Shown here: in pieces, positions 15,028-27,677 of the stretch
Layout: every line of letters starts with the position of its first letter
How positions within the stretch are numbered: the stretch's first letter is position 1
Sequence record: NC_025447.1
Reading direction: 5' to 3' (one strand)
From: Escherichia phage 121Q
DNA length: 64,000 nucleotides
The notes under the pieces: model-generated
Told to the model about the DNA's origin: nothing
Seen by the model: the letters and a program-made list of their open reading frames with translations, nothing else
Databases searched by the model: none
Made by a program: the position numbers and the translations under genes

Positions 15028-15060
15028 AGATTTTATCAAGACAACTAAGAGGAAACAATA

Positions 15061-15273: not shown

Positions 15274-15292
15274 AAATATTATCACAGTACTA

Positions 15293-15321
15293 TTGATATA
15301 GTTTGATAGTACTGGCATAAT
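15293..15321 (+). promoter_or_regulatory. early-type promoter (variant 2)
   Basis: TTGATA, 17-nt spacer, CATAAT. Confidence 0.5.
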
Positions 15322-15364
15322 AGATTTTATCAAGACAACACATATTAATTTAAGGAATACTAAA

Positions 15365-15688
15365 ATGGCTAAAACTATCATCAACACCGTTTCCCTGGCT
15401 GCAATCCGTGCAATCAATGTTGACGGTAAACGTTGGACTGATTCATATGGCAATACTTATCATTCTTGTCATGTAAGCGTCGAACTGGATAACGGTTTGA
15501 ATGATCTGGCGGTTGAATCATTTACTTATGGCTATGAAGATGCATATCAACAAACGGCGTTATCTCTCTTAAAGGAATCAGTAGACGGGCTTAATACTGA
15601 TGAAACCTCCCTTACTCGTTTGTGCAATGATCTTAATATCCCGTTGCATTGTACTGTACAGAATGTTAAACGCAAAAAAGATCTTTAA
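15365..15688 (+). CDS. hypothetical protein; paralog of 21575-21898
   Basis: Shared core RWTDSYGNTYHSCHVS...FTYGY...VKRKKD with the 21575 protein. Confidence 0.7.
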   Translation: MAKTIINTVSLAAIRAINVDGKRWTDSYGNTYHSCHVSVELDNGLNDLAVESFTYGYEDAYQQTALSLLKESVDGLNTDETSLTRLCNDLNIPLHCTVQNVKRKKDL

Positions 15689-15768
15689 TTAGCTTTACTT
15701 TATGCAGATACTTTTATATAGTGTCTGCATAGGGGAAAGAAATTAAATTAACTTAAGAGGATCGTATA

Positions 15769-16038
15769 ATGAAAAATATCAGTACTTTAATCGATGCAGG
15801 TACACATGTTCGTCGGTCAATGGTTGCAACCAGTACTACAAAACAAGTAGCAAGCGGTTATCTTGTATTTGTACACGAAGGAAAGCTATTGGAACGTTCA
15901 ATCAATTTTGATGTTAAAAACAATTGCCGTTTTATTATTTTTAAGCGTGAACAATATAAAATTGATTTGCCAGCAAAGCCCATAAGCGGGGCGTACAACG
16001 TGCAATCATTGTTTGAGCGTCAACCATACACCTATTAA
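15769..16038 (+). CDS. hypothetical protein (89 aa)
   Basis: SD AAGAGGAT; ATG 15769. Confidence 0.6.
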   Translation: MKNISTLIDAGTHVRRSMVATSTTKQVASGYLVFVHEGKLLERSINFDVKNNCRFIIFKREQYKIDLPAKPISGAYNVQSLFERQPYTY

Positions 16039-16089
16039 TCAAAACATCGTTAGCGGTCGATTTAGGCCGCTTATATTGGGGATTATACC

Positions 16090-16260
16090 ATGAACGTTAA
16101 TCAAGTACTGAATGAAGTTGAAAGCATCATTAAACCAATGAAACGTATTGATGCTGTTCCTACACCGGAAGAATGCCGCCTTTATGAGCGTTACAGTGTG
16201 GAACAAGCCCAGGAAATGGCCCGTATCCGTCCGGTTGCCAGTACTGATAAGGCGGCGTAA
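16090..16260 (+). CDS. hypothetical small protein (56 aa)
   Basis: ATG 16090 after GGGGATTA; stop abuts next start. Confidence 0.45.
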   Translation: MNVNQVLNEVESIIKPMKRIDAVPTPEECRLYERYSVEQAQEMARIRPVASTDKAA

Positions 16261-16261
16261 T

Positions 16262-16471
16262 ATGCTTACTGTACAGGATAAGATCGACATCTTAAAGGTT
16301 AATATGTATGTGATTGATGCAGATCCTGAAAAAGTATTTGCATACGATGATTCTAATCGTAGTCCTTTTTATTGTAGTCATGTAGTTGGATACGTGCCGT
16401 TAGGGTATGTTATCGAAAGAGTGGTTGATGAAGCATACAAACATTTTTTAGAAAATAATACTTGCAATTAG
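16262..16471 (+). CDS. hypothetical protein (69 aa)
   Basis: Start trimmed from 16148 to ATG 16262 (MLTVQDKIDIL), directly after the stop of the upstream ORF. Confidence 0.5.
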   Translation: MLTVQDKIDILKVNMYVIDADPEKVFAYDDSNRSPFYCSHVVGYVPLGYVIERVVDEAYKHFLENNTCN

Positions 16472-16489
16472 TTTTCAGTACTGTATAAT
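16462..16489 (+). promoter_or_regulatory. early-type promoter with leader hairpin
   Basis: TTGCAA, 16-nt spacer, TATAAT; hairpin GGGGGGAATGGTTCTCCCC 16502-16520. Confidence 0.6.
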
Positions 16490-16538
16490 TGTTTACATAG
16501 AGGGGGGAATGGTTCTCCCCGATACTAGGAGAATCAAA

Positions 16539-16691
16539 ATGAAACAATACAACGCTCGGTTTGATGTTACTATCGGCAACGGCAAAGGTCAATTTTCTTT
16601 CAGTACTCGTAGGAGTTATACAGAAAACTTCCTGCGTAATTGTGCACTGACCGCCGCACAAATTAAACATTACTTTCAGGCTAAAAAATGA
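16539..16691 (+). CDS. hypothetical small protein (50 aa)
   Basis: Start trimmed to ATG 16539 after SD TAGGAGAA. Confidence 0.6.
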   Translation: MKQYNARFDVTIGNGKGQFSFSTRRSYTENFLRNCALTAAQIKHYFQAKK

Positions 16692-16777
16692 AATCATTGG
16701 CTTATTACAGTTCGGCCCTGGTCGGTGCATTGATCGCGGCATTGTTAGTAACTTATCTATTCTTTATGGTGATTTAA
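16688..16777 (+). CDS. 29-aa hydrophobic peptide (single predicted TM helix)
   Basis: ATGA overlap with upstream stop; MKSLAYYSSALVGALIAALLVTYLFFMVI. Confidence 0.4.
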   Translation: MKSLAYYSSALVGALIAALLVTYLFFMVI

Positions 16778-16915
16778 ATGAATCCTAACGGTTTAATTTA
16801 CAGTACTCCTAAAACGAAAGCAGATAAAGCGAAAGCACGTAAAGCGAAAGTAAAGCAGTACATCAAGCAAGGCATGACACGCAAAGCGGCATTGCTTAAA
16901 GCTAAAAATAAATGA
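16778..16915 (+). CDS. 45-aa lysine-rich basic peptide
   Basis: TAAATG junction with upstream peptide; MNPNGLIYSTPKTKADKAKARKAKVKQYIKQG... Confidence 0.4.
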   Translation: MNPNGLIYSTPKTKADKAKARKAKVKQYIKQGMTRKAALLKAKNK

Positions 16916-16924
16916 AAAAAGTGG

Positions 16925-16953
16925 TTGACTTCGGTCAGCCATTTTGCTATTAT
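16925..16953 (+). promoter_or_regulatory. promoter with embedded inverted repeat, driving the box element
   Basis: TTGACT, 17-nt spacer (tcggtcagccattttgc), TATTAT. Confidence 0.5.
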
Positions 16954-16976
16954 ATATTCATTGAGAGATAGCTCAC

Positions 16977-17007
16977 TAGCCCACAGGGTGCAGGAGTGTA
17001 TCTATTG
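16977..17007 (+). repeat. 'CCCACAGGGTGCA...GTATCTAT' box element
   Basis: tagcccacagggtgcaggagtgtatctattg; family also at 10608, 12819(-), 18658, 20666, 23969, 25888. Confidence 0.55.
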
Positions 17008-17057
17008 TATAATGATTGAGTACTGAAAACTATTTTAAAGTATTTGATAAAAAGTAC

Positions 17058-17085
17058 TTGCAAACTATCTCAATGAGCGTATAAT
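17058..17085 (+). promoter_or_regulatory. early-type promoter with leader hairpin
   Basis: TTGCAA, 16-nt spacer, TATAAT; hairpin GGAAACGGTTTCC ~17102-17114. Confidence 0.6.
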
Positions 17086-17138
17086 GTTTTATATCGCAAG
17101 GGGAAACGGTTTCCTCTCCAAATAAAAGGAATACCAAA

Positions 17139-17477
17139 ATGATCTCTATCGCTCAATCTAACTTTGAAAACGAAATCATCGCTCAGGCACTGCGTTTAAA
17201 TGATGGTCGGGCCGAAATCAATTACGGTTTCAATAGTGGTGGATGTGAAAAATATCAGTACTTTGTAACGGCTGATGGCTGTGTCCTGGGTATCAATACA
17301 GTTATTGTAAACATTCAGAAAATTAATTTCAATGATCCAGACGATAGCCAGTTTTACATCACGGGCGTAGACGTGAACTATGAGGATGACTCACTAACTG
17401 ATGATCACACTGGCGAGAAGTTAGAAAGTGCATACGGTGAAGATGATTATCAGTCAGTACCAGAAGATTTTGAATAA
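17139..17477 (+). CDS. hypothetical acidic protein (112 aa)
   Basis: SD AAAAGGAAT; ATG 17139. Confidence 0.65.
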   Translation: MISIAQSNFENEIIAQALRLNDGRAEINYGFNSGGCEKYQYFVTADGCVLGINTVIVNIQKINFNDPDDSQFYITGVDVNYEDDSLTDDHTGEKLESAYGEDDYQSVPEDFE

Positions 17478-17491
17478 TATTAAAAAATAGT

Positions 17492-17519
17492 TTGACAATA
17501 GTTTTTAGTACTGTATAAT
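17492..17519 (+). promoter_or_regulatory. early-type promoter with leader hairpin
   Basis: TTGACA, 16-nt spacer, TATAAT; hairpin GGGGAGAATAGTTCTCCCC 17532-17550. Confidence 0.65.
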
Positions 17520-17572
17520 TAATTACATCAAGGGGAGAATAGTTCTCCCCACTAACAGAGAGAGAAAACAAA

Positions 17573-17785
17573 ATGGCTAATATCCGCACTGTACTGAAAA
17601 ATGCAAAACAAGTTTTATTTTCTGATCATGAAAATTTCAACAAGGATATCACTGGCGTTCGGAATATCAAAGATGTAAAAAATGTTATGGGTATCTATTG
17701 CAATATGAAACGTGTTGGCACGTTCGGCGATAAAGTACTATACCAGGCAGGGGATTACAATTTTACACTGACTATCATTAACTAA
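17573..17785 (+). CDS. hypothetical protein (70 aa)
   Basis: SD AGAGAGAGAAAA; MANIRTVLKN. Confidence 0.65.
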   Translation: MANIRTVLKNAKQVLFSDHENFNKDITGVRNIKDVKNVMGIYCNMKRVGTFGDKVLYQAGDYNFTLTIIN

Positions 17786-17804
17786 AAATATTATCACAGT
17801 ACTA

Positions 17805-17833
17805 TTGACAACGTTTGATAGTACTGGCATAAT
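17805..17833 (+). promoter_or_regulatory. early-type promoter (variant 2)
   Basis: TTGACA, 17-nt spacer, CATAAT. Confidence 0.55.
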
Positions 17834-17876
17834 AACTTTTATCAAGACAACGCATATTAATTTAAGGAATACTAAA

Positions 17877-18056
17877 ATGGCTATTATCGCAAAAACTGAA
17901 ATCATCGGCCTGGATTCTATCATCATGACGTTTGAAGATCAAAAAGGGATGTATGTAGTTTCCTATGGTGATTATGTTCGGGAGTATGAAACAGTAGACG
18001 AAGCCTTTGAAAGTTACATTCGCCAGGTTAATAAAGCATACGACGATTACCGCTAA
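17877..18056 (+). CDS. hypothetical protein (59 aa)
   Basis: Start trimmed from 17805 (which lies in the promoter) to ATG 17877 after SD TAAGGAAT; MAIIAKTEII. Confidence 0.6.
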   Translation: MAIIAKTEIIGLDSIIMTFEDQKGMYVVSYGDYVREYETVDEAFESYIRQVNKAYDDYR

Positions 18057-18083
18057 AATATATTACCAGTACTATTAAATCTA

Positions 18084-18111
18084 TTGACAATGTTTGATAG
18101 TACTGTATAAT
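18084..18111 (+). promoter_or_regulatory. early-type promoter
   Basis: TTGACA, 16-nt spacer, TATAAT. Confidence 0.55.
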
Positions 18112-18155
18112 AAGTTTTATAAACAGTAGTTAACTTAACCTAAGAGAGAAAAATC

Positions 18156-18299
18156 ATGACAGCATTAGATTCATTCATCGACGCAGTACTGGCAAAAACT
18201 GGCGAGGATCTGACCGCAGAACAATACGCGATGATCGAACAATGTCAGCAAGACGGTAAATCGGTGAAAGATACTGTTAAGATTATCCGCAAGATGTAA
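18156..18299 (+). CDS. hypothetical small protein (47 aa)
   Basis: SD TAAGAGAGAAAAA then ATG 18156; MTALDSFIDAVLAKTGEDL...; followed by terminator. Confidence 0.5.
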   Translation: MTALDSFIDAVLAKTGEDLTAEQYAMIEQCQQDGKSVKDTVKIIRKM

Positions 18300-18305
18300 G
18301 ATTAT

Positions 18306-18337
18306 AGCCCACTGGTTAACGCTGGTGGGCTTTAATC
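18306..18337 (+). terminator. terminator-like hairpin containing a Chi octamer
   Basis: AGCCCAC..GTGGGCT stem, then TTTAATC (weak U-tract). Confidence 0.45.
18321..18328 (+). other. Chi octamer GCTGGTGG
   Basis: Exact match inside hairpin loop/arm. Confidence 0.6.
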
Positions 18338-18404
18338 ATTTACCCTATACAATGCCAGTACTAAACCGTTTAACTCGTTAGAATGCGTTACAGGACGTTT
18401 AACA

Positions 18405-18602
18405 ATGATTAGCATGAAATCAGTACAAAAACAAATAGAAACATTATCAAAAATTAAACGTAAACAGTACTCATTAGAATATACAATCAATGGTAACTAT
18501 CATCTAATGAAAGAAAATAATTTTATAGTCATTGATGAATCATTGCAGATCATTAGTATAGTACTGAAAGCATTAATCAATGACAGAAAAAAGTTAAAAT
18601 AA
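18405..18602 (+). CDS. hypothetical protein (65 aa), uncertain
   Basis: ORF without convincing SD; preceded by repeated cgttagaatgcg element. Confidence 0.3.
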   Translation: MISMKSVQKQIETLSKIKRKQYSLEYTINGNYHLMKENNFIVIDESLQIISIVLKALINDRKKLK

Positions 18603-18606
18603 TCTA

Positions 18607-18635
18607 TTGACAATATTATCCAGTACTGGCATAAT
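18607..18635 (+). promoter_or_regulatory. early-type promoter (variant 2) in front of a ~290-nt leader
   Basis: TTGACA, 17-nt spacer, CATAAT; leader holds box element and GATC cluster. Confidence 0.5.
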
Positions 18636-18657
18636 ACTTACATCAAGACGAGAACGT

Positions 18658-18691
18658 CACTAACCCATAGGGTGCACAAATGTAACTATAT
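18658..18691 (+). repeat. 'CCCATAGGGTGCA' box element
   Basis: cactaacccatagggtgcacaaatgtaactatat. Confidence 0.5.
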
Positions 18692-18697
18692 AATATC

Positions 18698-18768
18698 GAT
18701 CAATAAATGATCAAAAAAGTACTGGATCAATTTAGCATAAGGCGTATAATTCTGATCAAATCTTGATC
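18698..18768. repeat. Cluster of five GATCAA repeats (Dam-type GATC sites)
   Basis: cgatcaat, tgatcaaa, ggatcaat, tgatcaaa, tgatcaaa within ~70 bp. Confidence 0.5.
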
Positions 18769-18931
18769 AAAGGCAATAAACGTAGTTGAAATTATATAGA
18801 AAGTACAAAGGCGTTACCATTCGTGGTAATGCTGGGGAATATGTAGTATCATACGGTTTGAATAAAATCAGTACTAGTAGTATTATTGTAGCATTACAGT
18901 ACTATAGTATTTTTATAATGAGGTTAAAATA

Positions 18932-19189
18932 ATGGCTGTTGGATTCGCGAAGGACGGGGCCGAGCAAGACGAGATTAACGCAGTGATTCAGGCCGCTGTA
19001 AACCACGCTAGAACGCAAATTAACGCACAAATAGAATCACTGATACATTGCCTCGACTGCGGCGATAAAATCCCTGAGAATCGCCGCCTGGCCGTTAAGG
19101 GGTGTAAGTACTGCATCACTTGCCAGGCTGATCATGATAGCATATTCAAACGCAATCCCCGTAATTGTTGGCATAGATCTATGAGATAA
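18932..19189 (+). CDS. TraR/DksA-family C4 zinc-finger protein (candidate RNA-polymerase-binding modulator)
   Basis: CLDCGDKIPENRRLAVKGCKYCITCQ matches the C-x2-C-x17-C-x2-C spacing and the CxxCGxxIPExRR...C..CQ pattern of TraR/DksA zinc fingers; SD TGAGGT. Confidence 0.55.
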   Translation: MAVGFAKDGAEQDEINAVIQAAVNHARTQINAQIESLIHCLDCGDKIPENRRLAVKGCKYCITCQADHDSIFKRNPRNCWHRSMR

Positions 19190-19195
19190 AAAGTA

Positions 19196-19223
19196 TTGAC
19201 AGTACTGTTAGTTAGTGTATAAT
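19196..19223 (+). promoter_or_regulatory. early-type promoter
   Basis: TTGACA, 16-nt spacer, TATAAT. Confidence 0.55.
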
Positions 19224-19252
19224 ATTTTATATCTTAACTGAGGATTGAAATC

Positions 19253-19609
19253 ATGGGTATACAACATATCACGCGTACTACAGACAATGGTGAGATCACT
19301 GGCTATCAAGTACAAGGCAAAGTAGCACAATTGCAGTACTGGTTTGTTAAACGTGGCATTGTTGCACCGGATCTTGATTATGATCGTGTAGCGTTTATTG
19401 ATTCTCTTTATGTTGATCCCGATAATCGCGGTAACGGTGAAGGTACTGAGTTAATGAATGCCTTTATTGATGCCGCCGATGATTCAGATTGTATCATCTT
19501 AGAATGCGATACTGGAGAAGATAACGAGTTTAATCTTAAAGAATGGTATGAAGGTTTTGGATTTGAAGTACTGATTAACTGCGAATATCCTATAATGATT
19601 TTATCCTAG
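19253..19609 (+). CDS. possible GNAT-family N-acetyltransferase (118 aa)
   Basis: LYVDPDNRGNGEGTELMNAF resembles GNAT motif A (R-G-x-G-x-G); SD CTGAGGAT. Confidence 0.4.
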   Translation: MGIQHITRTTDNGEITGYQVQGKVAQLQYWFVKRGIVAPDLDYDRVAFIDSLYVDPDNRGNGEGTELMNAFIDAADDSDCIILECDTGEDNEFNLKEWYEGFGFEVLINCEYPIMILS

Positions 19610-19611
19610 TA

Positions 19612-19639
19612 CTTGCAATTAGTTTTAAGTACTGTATAA
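19612..19639 (+). promoter_or_regulatory. early-type promoter with leader hairpin
   Basis: TTGCAA, 16-nt spacer, TATAAT; hairpin 19652-19670. Confidence 0.65.
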
Positions 19640-19688
19640 TAGTTTACATGAAGGGGAGAATAGTTCTCCCCACTACAAGGAAAGACAA

Positions 19689-19877
19689 ATGCAAAACTTA
19701 TCAAGTATTTTAGTACAAGATGATTTCGGTAATCCTGGAAGTGCTATCATCGTTCGGGGCAATAAGGCAACGTTTGTTATTGCTGGTGGACCTGTACAGC
19801 GTAGCATTAAAAACAATGCAGTTACAATCAATAATGTTCGCTATCGCTTAGATAAAGAATTGATTCATAAACTTTAA
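19689..19877 (+). CDS. hypothetical protein (62 aa)
   Basis: SD AAGGAAAGA; ATG 19689. Confidence 0.6.
   Translation: MQNLSSILVQDDFGNPGSAIIVRGNKATFVIAGGPVQRSIKNNAVTINNVRYRLDKELIHKL
19782..19789 (+). other. Chi octamer GCTGGTGG (inside CDS)
   Basis: Exact match, codes IAGG. Confidence 0.55.
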
Positions 19878-19885
19878 AAAAGTAT

Positions 19886-19913
19886 TTGACAAAGCATTGT
19901 AGTACTGTATAAT
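19886..19913 (+). promoter_or_regulatory. early-type promoter with leader hairpin
   Basis: TTGACA, 16-nt spacer, TATAAT; hairpin 19926-19945. Confidence 0.65.
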
Positions 19914-19962
19914 AGTTTACATGAAGGGGAGAAATGATTCTCCCCACTAAGAGGAAAGAAAC

Positions 19963-20175
19963 ATGCAAGGTCAACTAATCGTTCGTAAATGGTCTGATAC
20001 TAACGAAAAACCGTGGGATGTTCAATATATCGGACCGGACGGTGTTTCACGTTATCAACCTGGCGTAACGCATAGTACTGAGCAATATGCCGCCGCTCAC
20101 CGCGAACGCCTGTTAGAATCTATGAAACAGGGATTCTGTGAAAAATTCATTCAAGATCATTGGCTGAAAGATTAA
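19963..20175 (+). CDS. hypothetical protein (70 aa)
   Basis: SD AAGAGGAAAGAA; ATG 19963. Confidence 0.65.
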   Translation: MQGQLIVRKWSDTNEKPWDVQYIGPDGVSRYQPGVTHSTEQYAAAHRERLLESMKQGFCEKFIQDHWLKD

Positions 20176-20194
20176 TATATAAGGAGTACAGCTT

Positions 20195-20287
20195 ATGCAA
20201 ATGAATCCGATGATTGTTGTGTTAGCTGTACTTATGATCATTCATGCCATCGTAGAAGTACTAACACAATCAGGAGTAATACAATGA
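20195..20287 (+). CDS. 30-aa hydrophobic peptide
   Basis: SD AAGGAG then ATG 20195; MQMNPMIVVLAVLMIIHAIVEVL...; ATGA overlap with next ORF. Confidence 0.4.
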   Translation: MQMNPMIVVLAVLMIIHAIVEVLTQSGVIQ

Positions 20288-20454
20288 TCCAAGTAGAATT
20301 ATCAGTACTGAAAGATCTGTTTTATCGGTTAGGCACTACTGGCGAATACCCTAAAGGGGATACTGCTAAACTATACATTGCATTGGATGTATGGCAACGT
20401 AATGAACTGGCTAACGCCTGGCGTAAAGGTAAATCAGAGGGGATTGCAGCATGA
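20284..20454 (+). CDS. hypothetical small protein (56 aa)
   Basis: Coupled start; MIQVELSVLKDLFYRLG... Confidence 0.4.
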   Translation: MIQVELSVLKDLFYRLGTTGEYPKGDTAKLYIALDVWQRNELANAWRKGKSEGIAA

Positions 20455-20600
20455 AAGAATTTTTATTCGAAGTAGTGTTCCAGGGCGTAGGAAGTAACCA
20501 ACTGATTCGATCAAGTGGTTACAATGTTAACCAGGCATGGAATAACATTAAACAAATGTACCCGAACGCTATCACATATCGCAACCCAAAACAAGTTTAA
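20451..20600 (+). CDS. hypothetical small protein (49 aa)
   Basis: ATGA coupling; MKEFLFEVVFQGVGSNQLIRS... Confidence 0.4.
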   Translation: MKEFLFEVVFQGVGSNQLIRSSGYNVNQAWNNIKQMYPNAITYRNPKQV

Positions 20601-20618
20601 AAAGAATAAAAAAAGGGA

Positions 20619-20647
20619 TTGACTCCGGTCAGTCCCTTTGCTATTAT
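20619..20647 (+). promoter_or_regulatory. promoter with embedded inverted repeat, driving box element
   Basis: TTGACT, 17-nt spacer (ccggtcagtccctttgc), TATTAT. Confidence 0.5.
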
Positions 20648-20665
20648 ATACGCATAGACAAAAAC

Positions 20666-20696
20666 TAGCCCACAGGGTGCATAAATGTATCTATTA
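20666..20696 (+). repeat. 'CCCACAGGGTGCA' box element
   Basis: tagcccacagggtgcataaatgtatctattat. Confidence 0.55.
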
Positions 20697-20699
20697 TAT

Positions 20700-20707
20700 G
20701 CTGGTGG
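20700..20707 (+). other. Chi octamer GCTGGTGG
   Basis: Exact match, intergenic, directly 3' of box element. Confidence 0.6.
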
Positions 20708-20747
20708 CTAGTACTATCAAGTACTGAAAACTATTTTTAAAAAGTAC

Positions 20748-20775
20748 TTGCATTGTACTTAGAATCAAGTATAAT
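20748..20775 (+). promoter_or_regulatory. early-type promoter (first of tandem pair)
   Basis: TTGCAT, 16-nt spacer, TATAAT; followed by conserved ~85-nt leader. Confidence 0.55.
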
Positions 20776-20862
20776 GTTTTACATCAGGACGGGGAACGAA
20801 ACAAGTAACCCCGTTAAGTAGTCCAGGAGTAAGACATACGAAAACCTCCCCTGATAAAATAG

Positions 20863-20890
20863 TTTGACAATAGAAATTAAACAAGTATAA
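20863..20890 (+). promoter_or_regulatory. early-type promoter (second of tandem pair)
   Basis: TTGACA, 16-nt spacer, TATAAT. Confidence 0.55.
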
Positions 20891-20921
20891 TACTTACATC
20901 AACCACAAAGAGGAATACAAA

Positions 20922-21122
20922 ATGAAACATTTTACTTTCGGTGTAGTAGGCTTTACAGTATCCAGCGGCGTTTATAAATCAGAACGCGGTGCTAAAAATG
21001 CAGCAAGTCGGGCGTATGGTTCACAGCGTGACTTACAGGTCGGTTATATTAGTAACATTAATAACATGTTTATTCCTGTTTCACAGCGTAAAGCGGGTAA
21101 CATGAAATGGGAAACAATTTGA
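20922..21122 (+). CDS. hypothetical protein (66 aa)
   Basis: SD AAGAGGAAT; ATG 20922. Confidence 0.65.
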   Translation: MKHFTFGVVGFTVSSGVYKSERGAKNAASRAYGSQRDLQVGYISNINNMFIPVSQRKAGNMKWETI

Positions 21123-21131
21123 TAAAATAGT

Positions 21132-21159
21132 TTGACAATAGTTTTTAGTACTGTATAAT
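21132..21159 (+). promoter_or_regulatory. early-type promoter with leader hairpin
   Basis: TTGACA, 16-nt spacer, TATAAT; hairpin GTGGGGAATAGTTCCCCAC 21173-21190. Confidence 0.65.
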
Positions 21160-21211
21160 ATTTTACATCAAGTGGGGAATAGTTCCCCACCTAACAAAGA
21201 GAGAAATTAAA

Positions 21212-21487
21212 ATGCGGATTCTACTGACAGCTAACGAAATCGAGCAAGTACTGACTACTAACCTGGAAGACTGGAAACGTGATGCAGATATCCAGGCGGT
21301 GCAATGGCTCAATGATAAGTTAACGCCGGATGATTTAAGTAAGATTGTAGATCCACAATTCTATGAAGATATTCACGACACGGCTTTAAGCGTCGAGGAT
21401 GTACTTGATAAGCACTACATTGATATTGATTTGCAGGTTTACGGTCGTAAAAACTTTATCACTATTCACGACATTTATAATAATTAA
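21212..21487 (+). CDS. hypothetical protein (91 aa)
   Basis: SD AAAGAGAGAAA; ATG 21212. Confidence 0.65.
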   Translation: MRILLTANEIEQVLTTNLEDWKRDADIQAVQWLNDKLTPDDLSKIVDPQFYEDIHDTALSVEDVLDKHYIDIDLQVYGRKNFITIHDIYNN

Positions 21488-21489
21488 GT

Positions 21490-21517
21490 ATTGACAAAGT
21501 ATCTTAGTACTGTATAA
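21490..21517 (+). promoter_or_regulatory. early-type promoter with leader hairpin
   Basis: TTGACA, 16-nt spacer, TATAAT; hairpin AGGGGAATGGTTCCCCT 21534-21550. Confidence 0.65.
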
Positions 21518-21574
21518 TAGTTTACATCAAGGCAGGGGAATGGTTCCCCTCCTAACTAAAAGAGAGAAATTAAA

Positions 21575-21898
21575 ATGACTATGATCCTTACCCAGAAAGT
21601 AGAAATGAAAATTGTAACTTCCTTTGACATTAAAGTCAATCGGTGGACTGATAGCCACGGCAATACTTACCACTCATGCTACGTGTCTGCATTGATTGGT
21701 GACCGCTGGGAAGACCTGGGACATGAAACCTTTACTTACGGTTACGGTACACAAGGCGAATACACGGGCTTGGAGATCATTAAAGAAACTGTAATAGGTT
21801 TCAACCCGAAAGAGAAAGTACTACACAGAATTGAGGATGAGATCAACAAAGAAATTACAGTTCGTTACTACGATGTAAAACGTAAGAAAGATATGTAA
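21575..21898 (+). CDS. hypothetical protein; paralog of 15365-15688
   Basis: Shared core NRWTDSHGNTYHSCYVS...FTYGY...VKRKKD. Confidence 0.7.
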   Translation: MTMILTQKVEMKIVTSFDIKVNRWTDSHGNTYHSCYVSALIGDRWEDLGHETFTYGYGTQGEYTGLEIIKETVIGFNPKEKVLHRIEDEINKEITVRYYDVKRKKDM

Positions 21899-21920
21899 TA
21901 GAATCCATTTAAAGTACTAT

Positions 21921-21949
21921 TTGACATTGCCCAGATAGTACTTTATAAT
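21921..21949 (+). promoter_or_regulatory. early-type promoter
   Basis: TTGACA, 17-nt spacer, TATAAT. Confidence 0.55.
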
Positions 21950-21997
21950 AGACTCTAACTTGTAGTACTAATTAACTTAACTAATAGGATGTACACC

Positions 21998-22393
21998 ATG
22001 ATTACTAAATTCTTCGCTACCCGTGAACAAGCTCGCATCGTTGCCCGTGAAGAAGGTGAAACATTTAAAGACATGGGCAAAGATGCACCGAAAGGACAAC
22101 GCTGGGCGGTACAGTTCAAAGAGATCTCTGATATTGTGAATTCACCTGAGCCTGTACTTACAGCAGCAGAACTAAAGCAAGCTCAAGAACTGGCTGAAGT
22201 ACTGAACGCTCAAGATGACTTTTTGAAAGGTTCTGATATTGAAGTTACAGTTAACGCAAATGCATGGACTCACGCGGATCACCTGGCAAACCTTAAGCGT
22301 CCAAGTGAACTGATTCGTAACCAGAAAGAGATCCGTCATGACCGTAAAGGAAACCGTGTAACAGTATACAGTAAACGCCGCCAGGTTATCTAA
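21998..22393 (+). CDS. hypothetical protein; paralog of 9941-10207
   Basis: Start set to second ATG (21998), which has SD AGGA 9 nt upstream; N- and C-terminal similarity to the 9941 protein. Confidence 0.65.
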   Translation: MITKFFATREQARIVAREEGETFKDMGKDAPKGQRWAVQFKEISDIVNSPEPVLTAAELKQAQELAEVLNAQDDFLKGSDIEVTVNANAWTHADHLANLKRPSELIRNQKEIRHDRKGNRVTVYSKRRQVI

Positions 22394-22416
22394 TAACTTT
22401 GCAGTACTAACAACAC

Positions 22417-22442
22417 GGCGGGAATATTTCCCGCCTTTTTTA
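22417..22442 (+). terminator. Rho-independent terminator
   Basis: GGCGGGAA-TAT-TTCCCGCC followed by TTTTTTAT. Confidence 0.7.
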
Positions 22443-22455
22443 TAGGATAAACAAA

Positions 22456-22710
22456 ATGATTAAGGTTCAACTATCAAACGATAATGTATTACGGGTACAC
22501 TATAAAGCTCCACAGAGAATCATCACAAAGGCCGTACAGCTTGCTAATGAGTTTATTAATGGTAGTCTATTGCCTAGGAAGTTAAGCAACGGGAAACTAC
22601 GTGTAATCGACGTAGACACTAACAATAGAATAGTGATCGAGAGTACTGGAAAAATTAATCTATATGAACACCAACAATACAATAAAAAAATAAAACTAAT
22701 ATCACGTTGA
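22456..22710 (+). CDS. hypothetical protein (84 aa)
   Basis: SD TAGGAT; ATG 22456. Confidence 0.6.
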   Translation: MIKVQLSNDNVLRVHYKAPQRIITKAVQLANEFINGSLLPRKLSNGKLRVIDVDTNNRIVIESTGKINLYEHQQYNKKIKLISR

Positions 22711-22735
22711 CAGTACTCAAATGTTTTAGTATTAT
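22707..22735 (+). promoter_or_regulatory. promoter (duplicated module, copy 1)
   Basis: TTGACA, 17-nt spacer (gtactcaaatgttttag), TATTAT; near-identical module at 22983. Confidence 0.55.
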
Positions 22736-22763
22736 GTATCTATACCAACACAGGAGAAACAAA

Positions 22764-22982
22764 ATGAAATTATCTAAAATCGAAAAGAAAACTATTGATG
22801 AAGCAGTGAAGCACGGTTATACCTTTCGTAATGATTCACACTTCACCAGTTTTCAACAGGGAAACCGTACCATCAAAAAACTCATTGATAAAGGTTTACT
22901 CACTAAGGTTGATAACGGGAACGGTGTAGAATATCAACCGACAGAAGACGCATTATCACTAAAGAAATATTCTATTATCTAA
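22764..22982 (+). CDS. hypothetical protein (72 aa)
   Basis: Start trimmed from 22707 (in the promoter) to ATG 22764 after SD CAGGAGAAACAAA. Confidence 0.6.
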   Translation: MKLSKIEKKTIDEAVKHGYTFRNDSHFTSFQQGNRTIKKLIDKGLLTKVDNGNGVEYQPTEDALSLKKYSII

Positions 22983-23011
22983 TTGACAGTACTCAAATGT
23001 TTTAGTACTAT
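22983..23011 (+). promoter_or_regulatory. promoter (duplicated module, copy 2)
   Basis: TTGACA, 17-nt spacer, TACTAT. Confidence 0.55.
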
Positions 23012-23039
23012 GTACGCATACCAACACGGGGAAAACAAA

Positions 23040-23282
23040 ATGATTACTTTAGAAAAACGTATCAAAGAGACTACAACGCTGGTGGAACTGTTAACCGTTC
23101 TTAAATGCCGGGTAACTCCATTCAGTACACCGGACTTTATCAACATGGTGGACGTTAACGGTCGCTATCGTATTGCGGTCGAACAAGGTACGGCAAAAGT
23201 ATTCAGTACTAAAAATACGCGTGAAGTATTCCACGCAGTTCAAGTAAAAAAAGTAGTTGCCATTGATAGTAAAGTACTGTAA
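23040..23282 (+). CDS. hypothetical protein (80 aa)
   Basis: Start trimmed to ATG 23040 after SD CGGGGAAAACAAA; shares promoter/leader but not protein sequence with 22764. Confidence 0.6.
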   Translation: MITLEKRIKETTTLVELLTVLKCRVTPFSTPDFINMVDVNGRYRIAVEQGTAKVFSTKNTREVFHAVQVKKVVAIDSKVL

Positions 23283-23313
23283 TATAGTTTCATTAACTCA
23301 AGGAGTCAACACA

Positions 23314-23898
23314 ATGCGTAACTATACTAAATTCATCCGTTCACTTCATGCAATGGAAACCAACAAAGAGATCCTTTCAGCTTGTCGGTTAGCTGGACTG
23401 GAGATCGTCGGTGCGGGTTCTTCCCGTATTGTATTCGCTTTAAATGATCGGTTAGTGATTAAGGTCGCGAATTGTGATGCGGGTGTAGAACAAAATGAAA
23501 CTGAATGTAAGGTATGGAATTTTTTAGATTATGACCGTCCGCACCTTAAACAGTTCTTTGCCAAGGTGCATATGCATTTATGCGATCCTGATAATCTGCT
23601 TATTGTTATGGATCGTTTGAGTACTGCAAGCAAAGGCAGTGTAAAGCACGTAACCGCATGTAATGAGTTAAAGTACAATATTAAACGTAACACTATTGAA
23701 CGCCATCACCATTTCGCTGATGCTCTCAATCACGTTGATGATACATTATCCACACTAACGATAAGAGATATCAGAAAACAGAATATCGGCCAGGATCGCA
23801 ACGGCTTGATTAAAGTACTTGATTACGGTTTAACCCGCAATATCTGGAATCAGTACTATAAAAAACGTGATGTTAACGCGATAACTATAACACGATAA
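23314..23898 (+). CDS. putative protein-kinase-like protein (194 aa)
   Basis: Motif order resembles a kinase core: Gly-rich loop GAGSSRIVF, lysine in LVIKVAN, catalytic-loop-like RDIRKQNIG, DFG-like DYG; start trimmed to ATG 23314 after SD CAAGGAGT. Confidence 0.4.
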   Translation: MRNYTKFIRSLHAMETNKEILSACRLAGLEIVGAGSSRIVFALNDRLVIKVANCDAGVEQNETECKVWNFLDYDRPHLKQFFAKVHMHLCDPDNLLIVMDRLSTASKGSVKHVTACNELKYNIKRNTIERHHHFADALNHVDDTLSTLTIRDIRKQNIGQDRNGLIKVLDYGLTRNIWNQYYKKRDVNAITITR

Positions 23899-23916
23899 AA
23901 AAGATTAAAAAAGGGA

Positions 23917-23945
23917 TTGACTCCAGTCAGTCCCTTTGCTATTAT
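23917..23945 (+). promoter_or_regulatory. promoter with embedded inverted repeat, driving box element
   Basis: TTGACT, 17-nt spacer, TATTAT. Confidence 0.5.
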
Positions 23946-23968
23946 ATATTCATTGAGAGATAACTCAC

Positions 23969-24000
23969 TGACCCATAGGGTGCGGAAGTGTATCTATTAT
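23969..24000 (+). repeat. 'CCCATAGGGTGCG' box element
   Basis: tgacccatagggtgcggaagtgtatctattat. Confidence 0.55.
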
Positions 24001-24039
24001 ATAAGTATTCAGTACTGAAAACTATTTTATAAAAAGTAC

Positions 24040-24067
24040 TTGCAAACTATCTCAATGAGCGTATAAT
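24040..24067 (+). promoter_or_regulatory. early-type promoter with leader hairpin
   Basis: TTGCAA, 16-nt spacer, TATAAT; hairpin ~24078-24098; the 23917-24067 cassette is near-identical to 16925-17085. Confidence 0.6.
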
Positions 24068-24122
24068 GTTTTATATCGAGAGGGGGAAATGGTTCTCCCT
24101 GGTACTAAAAGGAATCAAGACG

Positions 24123-24344
24123 ATGGCTACTATGACCTGCGTTCACGCTTCAAATCTTCTGAATGATGCAGCATTTAAAGCAGGTGAAGAATATCAATGC
24201 TATCGGGATGAAAATAAAAAAGTTTTCGTCGTTGATGCTAACGGTTTCCATATTGAATTGCAATCCGGTTTCACTGGCATTGATGGTAAATCTGTATGGG
24301 GCGTCCAGGACGATAACGGCACATATCATTTTAAACGTAATTAA
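24123..24344 (+). CDS. hypothetical protein (73 aa)
   Basis: Start trimmed to ATG 24123 after SD AAAAGGAAT. Confidence 0.6.
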   Translation: MATMTCVHASNLLNDAAFKAGEEYQCYRDENKKVFVVDANGFHIELQSGFTGIDGKSVWGVQDDNGTYHFKRN

Positions 24345-24345
24345 G

Positions 24346-24373
24346 TATTGACAAAGTATATCAGTACTGTATA
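24346..24373 (+). promoter_or_regulatory. early-type promoter with leader hairpin
   Basis: TTGACA, 16-nt spacer, TATAAT; hairpin 24387-24405. Confidence 0.65.
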
Positions 24374-24428
24374 ATAGTTTACATCAAGGGGAGAATAGTT
24401 CTCCCCACCAATAAAAGGAAACAAAATT

Positions 24429-24701
24429 ATGTCCAGCTACTCCGCTACTATGATTATTAAAGATATGAACGGTAATCCTACTTCTGCTGGTGGATCATTT
24501 GGTAACATTAATTTAGATGGGCGGTTATCAATTGAATCAGCCATCAATGCAGCGAAAGAAGTTTTTAAGAATGAATGTACTGTAAGCAAGCTGGATTATA
24601 TGGGCTTCGCTATCGAGAAAACTAATCGTTTTGTGGACTACAAAAAACCACTGATGATTGATACTAACCTGAAAGCAAACGAAGTGGAATACTTATTATG
24701 A
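24429..24701 (+). CDS. hypothetical protein (90 aa)
   Basis: SD AAAAGGAAA; ATG 24429. Confidence 0.65.
   Translation: MSSYSATMIIKDMNGNPTSAGGSFGNINLDGRLSIESAINAAKEVFKNECTVSKLDYMGFAIEKTNRFVDYKKPLMIDTNLKANEVEYLL
24485..24492 (+). other. Chi octamer GCTGGTGG (inside CDS)
   Basis: Exact match, codes SAGG. Confidence 0.55.
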
Positions 24702-24889
24702 CAGTAGAAGAAGTTAAAAAAGTACTGGCAGTACTACGCTATCATAATCATTGTAAGGTGAAGAATGATCCTGATTATCTTGATTCATCGCTGGAAGAGG
24801 ATACACTACAAGCAATAAGCCATATGCAAAAAATGCTTAAGCGTATGACCGAAAAGAACAGGCCGGACTATATCGGAAATAAAATTTAA
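24698..24889 (+). CDS. hypothetical protein (63 aa)
   Basis: ATGA coupling to upstream gene. Confidence 0.55.
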   Translation: MTVEEVKKVLAVLRYHNHCKVKNDPDYLDSSLEEDTLQAISHMQKMLKRMTEKNRPDYIGNKI

Positions 24890-24895
24890 AAAGTA

Positions 24896-24923
24896 CTTGC
24901 ATTGTAAGTAAAACAAAGTATAA
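24896..24923 (+). promoter_or_regulatory. early-type promoter with leader hairpin
   Basis: TTGCAT, 16-nt spacer, TATAAT; hairpin GGGGGAGATATCCTCCCCC 24934-24952. Confidence 0.6.
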
Positions 24924-24972
24924 TGTTTTACATAGGGGGAGATATCCTCCCCCACTAATAAGGAGTACTAAA

Positions 24973-25197
24973 ATGGCTAACTTTGATGAACTGATGCGGG
25001 AAGTAGCTACCCTGGCAGAAGAGAAGAAATCATTTGATTCTATCTATAACACCGCTTACAGTGATTCAGTACTGGCATGTACTCAGGATCAAAAAGATGA
25101 ACTGATCGCCACCTATCATGAAGCATGGAAGTATTACCGCCAATGGGAGAAAGAAGAAAGCGAGTCTACCATCAACGGCATCAATAATCTAATCTAA
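24973..25197 (+). CDS. hypothetical protein (74 aa)
   Basis: SD TAAGGAGT; MANFDELMREV. Confidence 0.65.
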   Translation: MANFDELMREVATLAEEKKSFDSIYNTAYSDSVLACTQDQKDELIATYHEAWKYYRQWEKEESESTINGINNLI

Positions 25198-25215
25198 AGT
25201 TTTATTTCAGTACTA

Positions 25216-25244
25216 TTGACAATGCGTGATAGTACTGATGTGAT
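25216..25244 (+). promoter_or_regulatory. promoter-like element (weak -10)
   Basis: TTGACA, ~17-nt spacer, TGTGAT. Confidence 0.35.
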
Positions 25245-25271
25245 AACTTTACTAACTAAAGGGGAAACATA

Positions 25272-25529
25272 ATGGAACAGTTCACACAATATCGGGTAAA
25301 TCCTCAAGCTATGGCCTACGTAGAAGACCATAAAACGTTACCAGTACTAACACCAATTAAAGGCCATATCTATCGTGCTATGCAGTGGAATAACGCCTAT
25401 AATGGCTATAAAGCGGTATCCGCTGCAATGTACTTAGGGGATGGCGAATGGTTTGATCCAAATAATCCTGGTGCACTCGATAGTACTGAAAAAATGACAT
25501 GGGCCGACTATATCGAAGATATCTCATAA
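25272..25529 (+). CDS. hypothetical protein (85 aa)
   Basis: SD AAAGGGGAAA; ATG 25272. Confidence 0.6.
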   Translation: MEQFTQYRVNPQAMAYVEDHKTLPVLTPIKGHIYRAMQWNNAYNGYKAVSAAMYLGDGEWFDPNNPGALDSTEKMTWADYIEDIS

Positions 25530-25536
25530 AAACTAT

Positions 25537-25564
25537 TTGACAGTACTACAAGATAATGTATAAT
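25537..25564 (+). promoter_or_regulatory. early-type promoter with leader hairpin
   Basis: TTGACA, 16-nt spacer, TATAAT; hairpin GCGGGGGAATAGTTCTCCCGC 25577-25597. Confidence 0.6.
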
Positions 25565-25617
25565 GTTTTACATAGAGCGGGGGAATAGTTCTCCCGCACC
25601 TTTAGGAGTAAAACATT

Positions 25618-25818
25618 ATGTCAATCGCTAACGAATTGGTTGCAGTACTGAATGAAGCAAAAGCCAACTGCATCGATGTACAGATCAAAGAGCTTGGCAA
25701 TGGCTTGATCGGCTGTACTTGTACAGTGCAAACGGCTACCGATTATCGGGAAGTGGAATCACTCGAATCACTGGTACGGTATATTAAAATCCTGGTAGAA
25801 GATTGGAGAATCATCTAA
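25618..25818 (+). CDS. hypothetical protein (66 aa)
   Basis: SD TTAGGAGT; ATG 25618. Confidence 0.65.
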   Translation: MSIANELVAVLNEAKANCIDVQIKELGNGLIGCTCTVQTATDYREVESLESLVRYIKILVEDWRII

Positions 25819-25840
25819 CAAAAAAGAATAAAAAAAGGGA

Positions 25841-25869
25841 TTGACTCCGGTCAGTCCCTTTGCTATTAT
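25841..25869 (+). promoter_or_regulatory. promoter with embedded inverted repeat, driving box element
   Basis: TTGACT, 17-nt spacer, TATTAT. Confidence 0.5.
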
Positions 25870-25887
25870 ATACGCATAGACAAAAAC

Positions 25888-25918
25888 TAGCCCACTGGGT
25901 GCAGAGAAGTATCTGTAA
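25888..25918 (+). repeat. 'CCCACTGGGTGCA' box element
   Basis: tagcccactgggtgcagagaagtatctgtaag. Confidence 0.5.
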
Positions 25919-25946
25919 GATAGTTAATAACGGTGAGTAACTATCT

Positions 25947-25954
25947 GCTGGTGG
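25947..25954 (+). other. Chi octamer GCTGGTGG
   Basis: Exact match, intergenic. Confidence 0.6.
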
Positions 25955-25991
25955 ATGTAATTCCAGTACTCAAAACTATTTCAAAAAAGTA

Positions 25992-26020
25992 TTGACAAAG
26001 TATAGCAGTACTGAGATAAT
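25992..26020 (+). promoter_or_regulatory. promoter-like element
   Basis: TTGACA, 16-nt spacer (aagtatagcagtactg), AGATAA/GATAAT. Confidence 0.45.
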
Positions 26021-26074
26021 GTATCTCGTAGGGCGGCAATAGTGCAGCCCACCTCCAAAAGAGCGAGATATAAA

Positions 26075-26290
26075 ATGGCGTTAACCAAACAAGAAATTAT
26101 CGACCGTATCAAAGAGTCAACTGGCTGGTATGTTGGGGACCGTTTAATTGTTAAAGTTCTCGATTATTCAAATAATCCTCTTGCACCGGAACCAGTGGCA
26201 TACAAATTATCCTGGATATCTGCGTTTAGCGGTAAGCGTGAAAGATGTGTGTACTATCCGAACACCGTCGGGCTACAGTTCTGTAAATAA
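26075..26290 (+). CDS. hypothetical protein (71 aa)
   Basis: Start trimmed to ATG 26075 after SD AAAAGAGCGAGA. Confidence 0.6.
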   Translation: MALTKQEIIDRIKESTGWYVGDRLIVKVLDYSNNPLAPEPVAYKLSWISAFSGKRERCVYYPNTVGLQFCK

Positions 26291-26308
26291 ATTTTAATAG
26301 AAAAAGTA

Positions 26309-26337
26309 TTGACAAAGTATATCAGTACTGCAATAAT
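26309..26337 (+). promoter_or_regulatory. promoter-like element
   Basis: TTGACA, 16-nt spacer, CAATAA; same architecture as 25992. Confidence 0.45.
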
Positions 26338-26390
26338 GTATCTCGTAGGGCGGCAATGGTGCGACGGCCCACAAAGTTAGGAGATTCAAA

Positions 26391-26717
26391 ATGAGTACTT
26401 CAATCGCTATCGTTAAAGCTTTCATCCGTACCAATTTCGACCGCATTACTGTTGATGGTAATGATCGGGAAGTAGAATACTCTTTCATTGTTGCACAAAC
26501 CGCAAACGGTGCACGCTATATCTTAAATGACAGTGAAGCTAACCACTACTTCTATAATAAAGGATTACACTACATCCCTAGCGAAGTAGTCTACACTAAG
26601 ATGAATAAGCTGGTAGACAAGATTAACGCTAAAGGTACTATCGATTTACAGTACTGGAGCGAAACCGAACCAGAATACGGATCACATCGTTACCTGAATC
26701 CAGGAATTAAAATGTAA
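26391..26717 (+). CDS. hypothetical protein (108 aa)
   Basis: SD TTAGGAGAT; ATG 26391. Confidence 0.65.
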   Translation: MSTSIAIVKAFIRTNFDRITVDGNDREVEYSFIVAQTANGARYILNDSEANHYFYNKGLHYIPSEVVYTKMNKLVDKINAKGTIDLQYWSETEPEYGSHRYLNPGIKM

Positions 26718-26724
26718 AAAGTAC

Positions 26725-26752
26725 TTGCATTGTACTTAGAATCAAGTATAAT
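26725..26752 (+). promoter_or_regulatory. early-type promoter with leader hairpin
   Basis: TTGCAT, 16-nt spacer, TATAAT; hairpin 26766-26786. Confidence 0.6.
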
Positions 26753-26806
26753 GTTTTACATAGAGAGGGGGAAATGGTTCTCCCTCCTAAATTAAGGAGT
26801 TTTATC

Positions 26807-27208
26807 ATGACCTTCTCAATCACTTCCTTCGCTGACGTTTTAGTACTGGCTCGGACTTTTGGTAAAGATGCACTGGAGTACGCTGTAAGTAATGGCACTC
26901 TCCAACCGGAACAATGCCGCATCATTGGAAACTGTAAACGTTGGGCGGTATCCAATACTATTGCACTAGAAAACTTCAACGATGGTAACAATGAGTATTC
27001 AGTTGATGCAGTATTCGAAGCCGTTGATCTTGGCGGTATCTATAACACTAACCTAAATGATGTGCGTATCGTTCGCACGGGGTTCGGTGCTTATGATGTA
27101 TCTATCCGTGAAGCTATGAACACCGGATACATTAGTAAGGACTTACTTGCTCACATCATGCAGCTATGGACGGAACGTAACGAAGCACGCACTATCTTAG
27201 GACTATAA
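26807..27208 (+). CDS. hypothetical protein (133 aa)
   Basis: Start trimmed to ATG 26807 after SD TTAAGGAGT. Confidence 0.65.
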   Translation: MTFSITSFADVLVLARTFGKDALEYAVSNGTLQPEQCRIIGNCKRWAVSNTIALENFNDGNNEYSVDAVFEAVDLGGIYNTNLNDVRIVRTGFGAYDVSIREAMNTGYISKDLLAHIMQLWTERNEARTILGL

Positions 27209-27276
27209 GCATTACACATCACCAAACATCATAGGCCGCTCTCTAGCGGCCTTAACTATATCAGGAGTACATACAT

Positions 27277-27486
27277 ATGTTCTATACAGTATACAGCGTT
27301 CTAGGTACTATTGCTGGCGTACATGATAACGTCGCTGATGCTATGCGTACAGTACTAACACAAGTCCCCCTCAAGCCTAAGACTGTTAAGCAGATGACAG
27401 CTAGACTTACCAGGGCTGGCGATGGCGTGGAAGTATGGCAGGACTACGGGGATACACAGATAATCGTTAGCGTAACGAAGGATTAA
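27277..27486 (+). CDS. hypothetical protein (69 aa)
   Basis: SD CAGGAGTA; preceded by hairpin GGCCGCTCTCTAGCGGCC. Confidence 0.6.
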   Translation: MFYTVYSVLGTIAGVHDNVADAMRTVLTQVPLKPKTVKQMTARLTRAGDGVEVWQDYGDTQIIVSVTKD

Positions 27487-27514
27487 TGCGTAAAGGGATC
27501 TAGTACTGATTCAG

Positions 27515-27580
27515 AAAAAAGTCAAGGCGTTTTTAAAATTATGCGTTAAAAAAATGCATAGGTAATCCCTTGACTTTTTT
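27515..27580. repeat. Long inverted repeat at the boundary between early region and array 2 (possible bidirectional terminator)
   Basis: aaaaaagtcaagg ...~40 nt... ccttgactttttt. Confidence 0.5.
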
Positions 27581-27677
27581 GAAATAAAAGGGATTGGACT
27601 ATGGCAAAATGCGTGGGGGGCTAAAGTGCGGGTAACCTTAGCGACTTCGATAAAGGGGTATTACGAATAAAATGTTA

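Follow-up and report, generated by a model that had tools for sequence, protein, structure and literature searches.

A recent study showed that the early kinase of phage T7, gp0.7 (T7K), is a weapon with broad anti-defence action; the kinase domain of T7K comprises residues 1-242, with a DPV motif at 213-215, and homologues have been reported in the jumbo phages G17 and Munch (PMC13645617). The effectors OspG and NleH1/2 have a minimal kinase fold of ~160-200 amino acids that lacks subdomains VIII-XI (PMC12756638), and ArkI, a protein of similar size that was once a 'hypothetical Ser/Thr kinase', is a tRNA 2'-kinase (PMC9095486). Here we describe a gene of Escherichia phage 121Q that lies in a stretch of 64,000 nucleotides from sequence record NC_025447.1 (the window, to which all positions refer) and encodes a protein of 194 amino acids (23314..23898, + strand; ATG at 23314, TAA at 23896-23898). 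From its sequence and structure model, the product is very probably an active phosphotransferase with the protein-kinase-like (PKL) fold, with the same minimal design as OspG and NleH1/2; it belongs to a family (PHROG 4301; e.g., Sharanji WNN14351.1 and Turkey5 XMR01560.1) that is distinct from T7K.

That this gene is kinase-like is public knowledge. Its orthologues are annotated as 'putative protein kinase' in phages Munch, Muenster, SE_PL, and fENko-Kae01, as 'protein kinase' in K64-1, as 'serine/threonine-protein kinase' in Turkey3, Turkey5, and fEgEco12, and as 'protein kinase domain-containing protein' in ph0011 and PBECO4 (UniProt L7TKF0); the Sharanji paper also mentions the gene. The open reading frame (ORF) is, then, a well-supported, already-annotated putative kinase. 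In the annotations, Pfam/PHROGs, and literature that we searched, we found no recognition of a separate family that has its own signature and is apparently borne by phages, no separation from the T7K lineage, no description of a minimal C-lobe as a family trait or of tandem-array relatives, and no functional data.

Catalytic motifs and fold

A sequence-only reading of this DNA had pointed to four motifs, GAGSSRIVF, LVIKVAN, RDIRKQNIG, and VLDYGL, in the order and spacing of a protein-kinase-like fold. All four are present in the 194-residue product in that order, and their spacing is kinase-like: K50 and D152 are separated by 102 residues and D152 and D170 by 18. The equivalent distances in PKA are 94 and 18. 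Two further features are a glutamate in helix αC (E64) and the end of the protein only 24 residues past the Asp of the DYG motif.

We counted the conservation of each position in 167 non-redundant copies of the family domain. In the Gly-rich loop (residues 33-41; 23410..23436, +), G35 is present in 160 copies and R38 in all 167; the family signature of this loop is GxGSSRxV[FY], that is, the invariant R38 stands where GxGxxG has its third Gly. The β3 'VAIK' lysine (K50; 23461..23463, +), which aligns with K93 of T7K, occurs in 167/167 copies, as does E64 (23503-23505) in the αC motif G57-x-x-Q60-N61-x-x-E64 (23482..23505, +); G57, Q60, and N61 (98-99%) are family-specific. The catalytic loop, D152-I-R-K-Q-N157 (23767..23784, +), aligns with the HRD...N loop of MKK4 and CTR1; D152 is found in 164/167 copies (98%), and the HRD His and Arg are not conserved in the family. 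In the DFG-equivalent, Mg-binding motif D170-Y-G (23821..23829, +), D170 is present in 167/167 copies and G172 in 166/167, with Y or F at the middle position in 146/167. R38, K50, E64, and D170 are therefore 100% conserved, and D152, G57, Q60, N61, G159, and G172 are conserved at 98-99%; in eukaryotic protein kinases (ePKs), nothing corresponds to R38, Q60, or N61. The full family signature is GxGSSRxV[FY] ... VxKxA ... GxxQNxxE ... D[LI]xxx[HNSQ]xG ... LDYG. The ratio of nonsynonymous to synonymous substitution rates (dN/dS) among Asteriusvirus orthologues is 0.04-0.18. Because the catalytic set is completely conserved, the sequences argue against a pseudokinase.

The best Pfam matches of the protein are PK_Tyr_Ser-Thr (PF07714; E=5e-4, 19.8 bits) and Pkinase (PF00069; E=2.4e-3, 17.8 bits), both of which span the catalytic core in register; only 6/48 relatives have a Pkinase match at E<=0.01. 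A phmmer search of PDB sequences gave 76 matches at E<=10, the best 60 of which are all protein kinases, and a profile of 12 close homologues gave 261 matches at E<=1, the best 60 of which are again all protein kinases; the best match of the profile is MKK4 (E=1.6e-4), whose catalytic loop and DFG align with RDIRKQN and DYG. The family match (phrog_4301; E=2.2e-42, residues 1-190) is to a PHROG annotated as 'unknown function', and a search of NCBIfam gave nothing meaningful. Membership in PD-T4-6 was considered and rejected; PADLOC gave only weak, generic kinase-loop matches (E 0.004-0.04) that are not indicative.

An AlphaFold2 model built from a 48-sequence alignment is confident, with a predicted local distance difference test score (pLDDT) of 93.1 and a predicted template modeling score (pTM) of 0.88. 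It starts with two helices (residues 4-12 and 17-26), followed by β1, the Gly-loop, and β2 (30-42), β3 with K50 (47-52), a long αC with E64 (55-73), β5 (96-100), αD (107-120), αE (129-145), the catalytic loop D152...N157, β7/β8 (158-168), D170-Y-G, and a closing helix (175-193). Both lobes of a PKL protein are present, an N-lobe β-sheet with αC and a C-lobe with αE, the catalytic loop, and the metal-binding loop, as are the pairing of β3 Lys with αC Glu and the combination of a catalytic-loop Asp with a DFG-type metal-binding Asp. In a Foldseek search of the PDB, human PRPK/Bud32 ranks first (6wqx_D; query template modeling score, TMq, 0.49), followed by APH(2''), Legionella Lpg2603, IRAK4, and NleH2.

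These results support the protein-kinase-like fold, through the confident model, the Foldseek matches, and the profile matches to kinases in the PDB; of the two outcomes that the sequence-only reading had named as fatal to it, the lack of a kinase-like fold in a predicted structure and the lack of profile similarity, neither was found. The motif match exceeds chance, judging from the invariant catalytic residues, the all-kinase PDB matches, and the low dN/dS. A fortuitous occurrence of the motifs, either in another ATP-utilizing fold (e.g., one like SAICAR synthase) or in a protein with no enzymatic function, deserves hardly any credence; it is effectively refuted by the all-kinase profile matches, the Foldseek matches, and the conservation of the catalytic residues. 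The SAICAR-synthase reading was rejected.

Bud32 in KEOPS works mainly as an ATPase, and the first place of PRPK/Bud32 among the Foldseek matches counts in favor of a different explanation, that is, an ATP-binding switch, ATPase, or scaffold (a binder resembling Bud32/PRPK or a pseudokinase) that acts by binding a host or phage partner instead of by phosphorylation. The binding of RPS3 by NleH, which is independent of kinase activity, counts in the same direction (PMC12756638). The residues for phosphotransfer are, however, strictly conserved (D152, 98%; D170, K50, and E64, 100%), which argues for catalysis, and neither a Kae1/Cgi121-like partner nor any other conserved neighbor was found. The loop motifs of Bud32/PRPK differ from those of the ORF; no match to Pfam RIO1 or Kdo/Bud32 was found in 48 members at E<=0.01; and neither KEOPS partners (Kae1, Cgi121/TPRKB) nor ribosome-biogenesis partners occur near the ORF or near three distant family members (vide infra). 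Sequence separates this explanation from a phosphotransferase only in part, as ATPase activity needs the same residues; we regard it as quite improbable.

A minimal C-lobe as a family trait

In the model, a single C-terminal helix (residues 175-193; 23836..23895, +) ends the protein; the activation segment, the APE motif, and αF-αI (subdomains VIII-XI) are absent. An exhaustive HMMER search for the family identified 233 cluster representatives at E<=1e-3. In 126 single-domain relatives, the tail past the Asp of the DYG motif has a median length of 24 residues and is <=45 residues in 88%. We rejected the reading of the short C-terminus as a truncation or the mark of a pseudogene; it is a family trait, and the gene is under purifying selection.

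In metagenomic relatives, the unit of ~200 residues recurs whole in tandem arrays of 2-4 copies. Such relatives include P0036, P0030, P0020, P0024, and P0037 (e.g., four copies in 923 residues), and P0159 (3248 residues) has two copies of the module at 653-1040. The multi-domain relatives contain no Pfam partner domains and no kinase-related Pfam domain; they repeat the same module.

The canonical Ser/Thr kinases (PF00069/PF07714; e.g., MKK4 and PknB) are the best sequence matches, with subdomains I-VII in register. Unlike canonical ePKs, the ORF has sub-threshold Pfam scores, lacks the activation segment, APE, and αF-αI, has no conserved HRD Arg or D+2 Lys, and carries an invariant Arg where their P-loop has its third Gly. 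NleH2 (162 residues; 4lrk and 4o96) was found by Foldseek with E ~1e-3, but with a TM-score of only 0.38-0.47, and no sequence-level relationship to OspG/NleH was detected. Those proteins are effectors of type III secretion systems that act in eukaryotic cells, whereas the ORF is in the early region of a lytic phage; OspG requires ubiquitin/E2~Ub for activation, a context that the phage ORF does not have.

Relation to the T7 kinase

The ORF product resembles T7K in that both are phage-encoded, in that the kinase domain ends ~25-30 residues past the DFG-equivalent Asp with no activation segment, and in that the gene is near the genome end behind host-type promoters. It differs in having DYG instead of DPV/DPx, in its GSSR Gly-loop and QNxxE αC signatures, and in the lack of a C-terminal shut-off/DNA-binding domain, which the jumbo-phage T7K homologues lack too. 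BLASTP detects no pairwise similarity (E=5.6 with T7K). In an hhalign comparison of the two families (probability 66%, E 5.5e-5), the Gly-loop, Lys, catalytic Asp/Asn, and metal-binding Asp are in register. T7-type kinases are also among the structural matches in BFVD (E ~1e-5 to 1e-6). The precomputed Pfam assignments are none for the ORF family and PF27024 for the T7K relatives.

Jumbo phages that carry the mini-kinase gene also carry a T7-type kinase. Sharanji gp144 (WNN14432.1, L004:21183-21857) has 224 residues, a match to T7 gp0.7 (E=4e-8), and a TDP motif; it is annotated as 'hypothetical protein' in Sharanji and as 'protein kinase' in ph0011. The gp144 gene is ~46 kb from the mini-kinase gene, and no gene of the gp144/T7K type occurs in the 64-kb window. 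Because the same phages carry both genes, the ORF and gp144 are not orthologues; their BLASTP E-value is 0.036. The T7K homologues reported for G17 and Munch are most probably of the gp144 type, because the paper describes a DP-type motif.

The two families also differ in distribution. With the 194-residue protein as query, tblastn identified 58 phage records; all but one of these are Rak2-like jumbo genomes of 310-386 kb, from phages of Escherichia, Salmonella, Klebsiella, Yersinia, Erwinia, Pectobacterium, and Xanthomonas, and the sole exception is a 51.8-kb Klebsiella phage record. T7-like phages are not among the 58 records. With gp144, in contrast, 768 phage records were identified, most of them for Autographiviridae kinases. 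As judged by profile comparison, the ORF family and T7K are remote superfamily relatives that have a common short-C-lobe design, yet they are separate families that reside in the same phages.

In phage CMSTMSU (MH494197.1, 116446-117023), the orthologue is only 70.6% identical, is found in two pieces, and has no annotated feature; it may be disrupted or divergent.

Genomic context and expression signals

By megablast, the window falls in the Asteriusvirus group, E. coli jumbo myophages with genomes of ~350 kb (phAPEC6, PBECO4, G17, and Sharanji), with 92% identity to phAPEC6. The gene is inside a block (7458..27640, +) of co-directional small genes with dense σ70 promoters that matches a direct terminal repeat of 21.5 kb in phage vB_Ec-M-J. 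In that phage, the repeat is annotated with a length of 21,525 bp and includes the orthologue, EcMJ_042; the annotated terminal repeats in the records of Muenster and fENko-Kae01 also cover the orthologue. Position 1 of vB_Ec-M-J, its physical left end, corresponds to position 7458 in the window, and the end of its repeat corresponds to ~27,640; therefore, the kinase-like gene is located ~15.9 kb from the genome end. The window appears to span the genome-terminus junction; positions 1-7457 would then belong to the other end of the unique region.

Between 7.8 and 25.6 kb, the + strand has 13 perfect TTGACA-16/17-TATAAT promoters; in the whole window, 78 sites that match at least 10/12 consensus positions are on the + strand vs 30 on the - strand, with ~26 expected from shuffles. 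The dense promoter series (~6300-26400, +) amounts to roughly one promoter per 1-2 small genes. Because the gene is in the terminal-repeat block behind host-type σ70 promoters, it is probably transcribed immediately by the host RNA polymerase; a transcriptome paper for this phage group was not among the top results of our literature search.

A Shine-Dalgarno sequence, AAGGAG (23300..23305, +), can be read 8 nt 5' of the ATG. A σ70-like site, TTGCCA-17-TAATAT (23257..23285, +; 9/12 by consensus match), precedes it, and matches at 22983-23011 (10/12, +) and 22707-22735 (11/12, +) are candidate drivers of the gene. At 22707 and 22983, the TTG of the -35 box yields spurious TTG-start ORFs with near-identical N-termini (MTVLKCFS...). 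Directly 3' of the stop codon is a 12-bp stem-loop with no T-run (23910..23937, +); the stem-loop region (23910-23945) includes TTGACT, the -35 hexamer of the extended -10 promoter of the next gene (23917-23945), so that this promoter shares sequence with a terminator-like hairpin. The window contains no paralogue of the ORF. Past the repeat boundary, 28333-34194 (+) contains tightly packed, overlapping ORFs of ~70-90 residues, and BLAST alignments to vB_Ec-M-J overlap one another there (30025-31262 and 30798-31874), which points to small paralogous genes in an array.

Outside the jumbo phages, a profile search of a collection of 5.8 billion proteins retrieved only unnamed proteins, none with a kinase-related Pfam assignment, and the structural matches in BFVD include small (140-260 residues), uncharacterized proteins from many large phages. 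Three distant members are encoded by contigs of 119-208 kb amid T4-like phage genes (Portal_T4, Gp23, Peptidase_S77, and gp13/gp15), and no conserved neighbor gene was found around these three. The family appears to be phage-borne. At L006:8001-8669 and L008:8001-8729, the family member is within or adjoins a head-gene cluster (portal, prohead protease S77, and Gp23); because of this location in distant T4-like contigs, it is a possibility that some members of the family are packaged, injected proteins.

Proposed function and substrate

We propose that the ORF product is an active phosphotransferase that uses ATP and has a minimal version of the protein-kinase-like fold, assembled from a two-helix N-terminal extension, a five-strand N-lobe, the GxGSSR loop, the K50-E64 pair, αD/αE, the D152 loop, D170-Y-G, and the closing helix. 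The enzyme lacks both the activation segment and peptide-docking helices and should therefore be active constitutively with poor selectivity, unless its specificity depends on a partner. The host RNA polymerase would transcribe the gene right after DNA entry, and the enzyme would then phosphorylate host macromolecules, most probably proteins on Ser/Thr, aiding takeover or disarming defences in parallel with the separate T7-type kinase of the same phages.

In the small-molecule kinases of the superfamily (APH, ChoK, and MTRK), a large, helical subdomain at the C-terminus provides the pocket for the substrate. A protein substrate is favored because this subdomain, which such kinases need, is absent from the ORF, because true protein kinases are the closest relatives of the ORF in sequence, and because other kinases of reduced design (OspG/NleH, T7K, and Bud32) act on proteins. 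The same missing pocket and the same best sequence matches stand against an active kinase with a non-protein substrate, that is, RNA/tRNA (an ArkI-like 2'-OH kinase), DNA ends, a nucleotide-derived defence signal, or a small molecule (an APH/MTR-kinase-like enzyme). No conserved partner gene was found either. For tRNA in particular, no tRNA genes are near the ORF, and no sequence-level membership in the ArkI family (COG2112/AQ578) was detected; ArkI is archaeal/thermophile-specific and tRNA-linked, whereas the ORF has no tRNA context. We consider a non-protein substrate unlikely, although ArkI, which shows that mini-kinases can act on RNA (PMC9095486), gives it some weight.

The precedent of ArkI is one of several points that weigh against an early kinase of host proteins. 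Both Pfam scores are under the gathering thresholds (17.8 vs 31.7 bits for Pkinase and 19.8 vs 23.1 bits for PK_Tyr_Ser-Thr). N157 is invariant in the jumbo-phage orthologues, but the position is H/N/S/Q across the family, and the D+2 Lys of the catalytic loop that is typical of Ser/Thr kinases is not conserved. The ORF contains no substrate-binding region from which a protein substrate could be deduced. The promoter match nearest to the gene is weak (9/12), the stronger ones being 300-600 bp upstream, and the distant T4-like relatives have the gene in the company of head genes instead of in an early block. Finally, we applied the test for S/T/Y depletion in co-expressed early proteins that was used in the T7K study; the proteins of the terminal-repeat block contain 17.0% S/T/Y vs 18.8% (p=0.05), that is, no clear depletion, unlike in the phages with T7K. 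With these points included, the complete proposal, an active kinase with a protein substrate and a role in host takeover or counter-defence, is close to evenly balanced, with at best a slight lean in its favor.

A more far-reaching version would make this phage-borne mini-kinase family, with its own signature (the Arg at the P-loop tip and GxxQNxxE in αC) and a module that also occurs in tandem arrays of up to four, a second counter-defence kinase arm of jumbo phages that is mechanistically independent of the T7-type kinase; its members could be hyper-promiscuous protein kinases or could have a non-protein target (RNA or a defence signaling nucleotide). We offer this version as speculation that is doubtful as a whole.

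The Rak2-like jumbo coliphages are candidates for phage therapy. Besides a T7-type kinase, they have a second, unrelated-looking mini-kinase, encoded in the terminal repeat. Should the mini-kinase act on host or defence proteins, or on a target other than protein, counter-defence by kinases would reach beyond the T7K lineage; also, a kinase module that is very small (~190 residues) and self-sufficient and has an unusual Arg in its P-loop would bear on the minimal requirements of the kinase fold.
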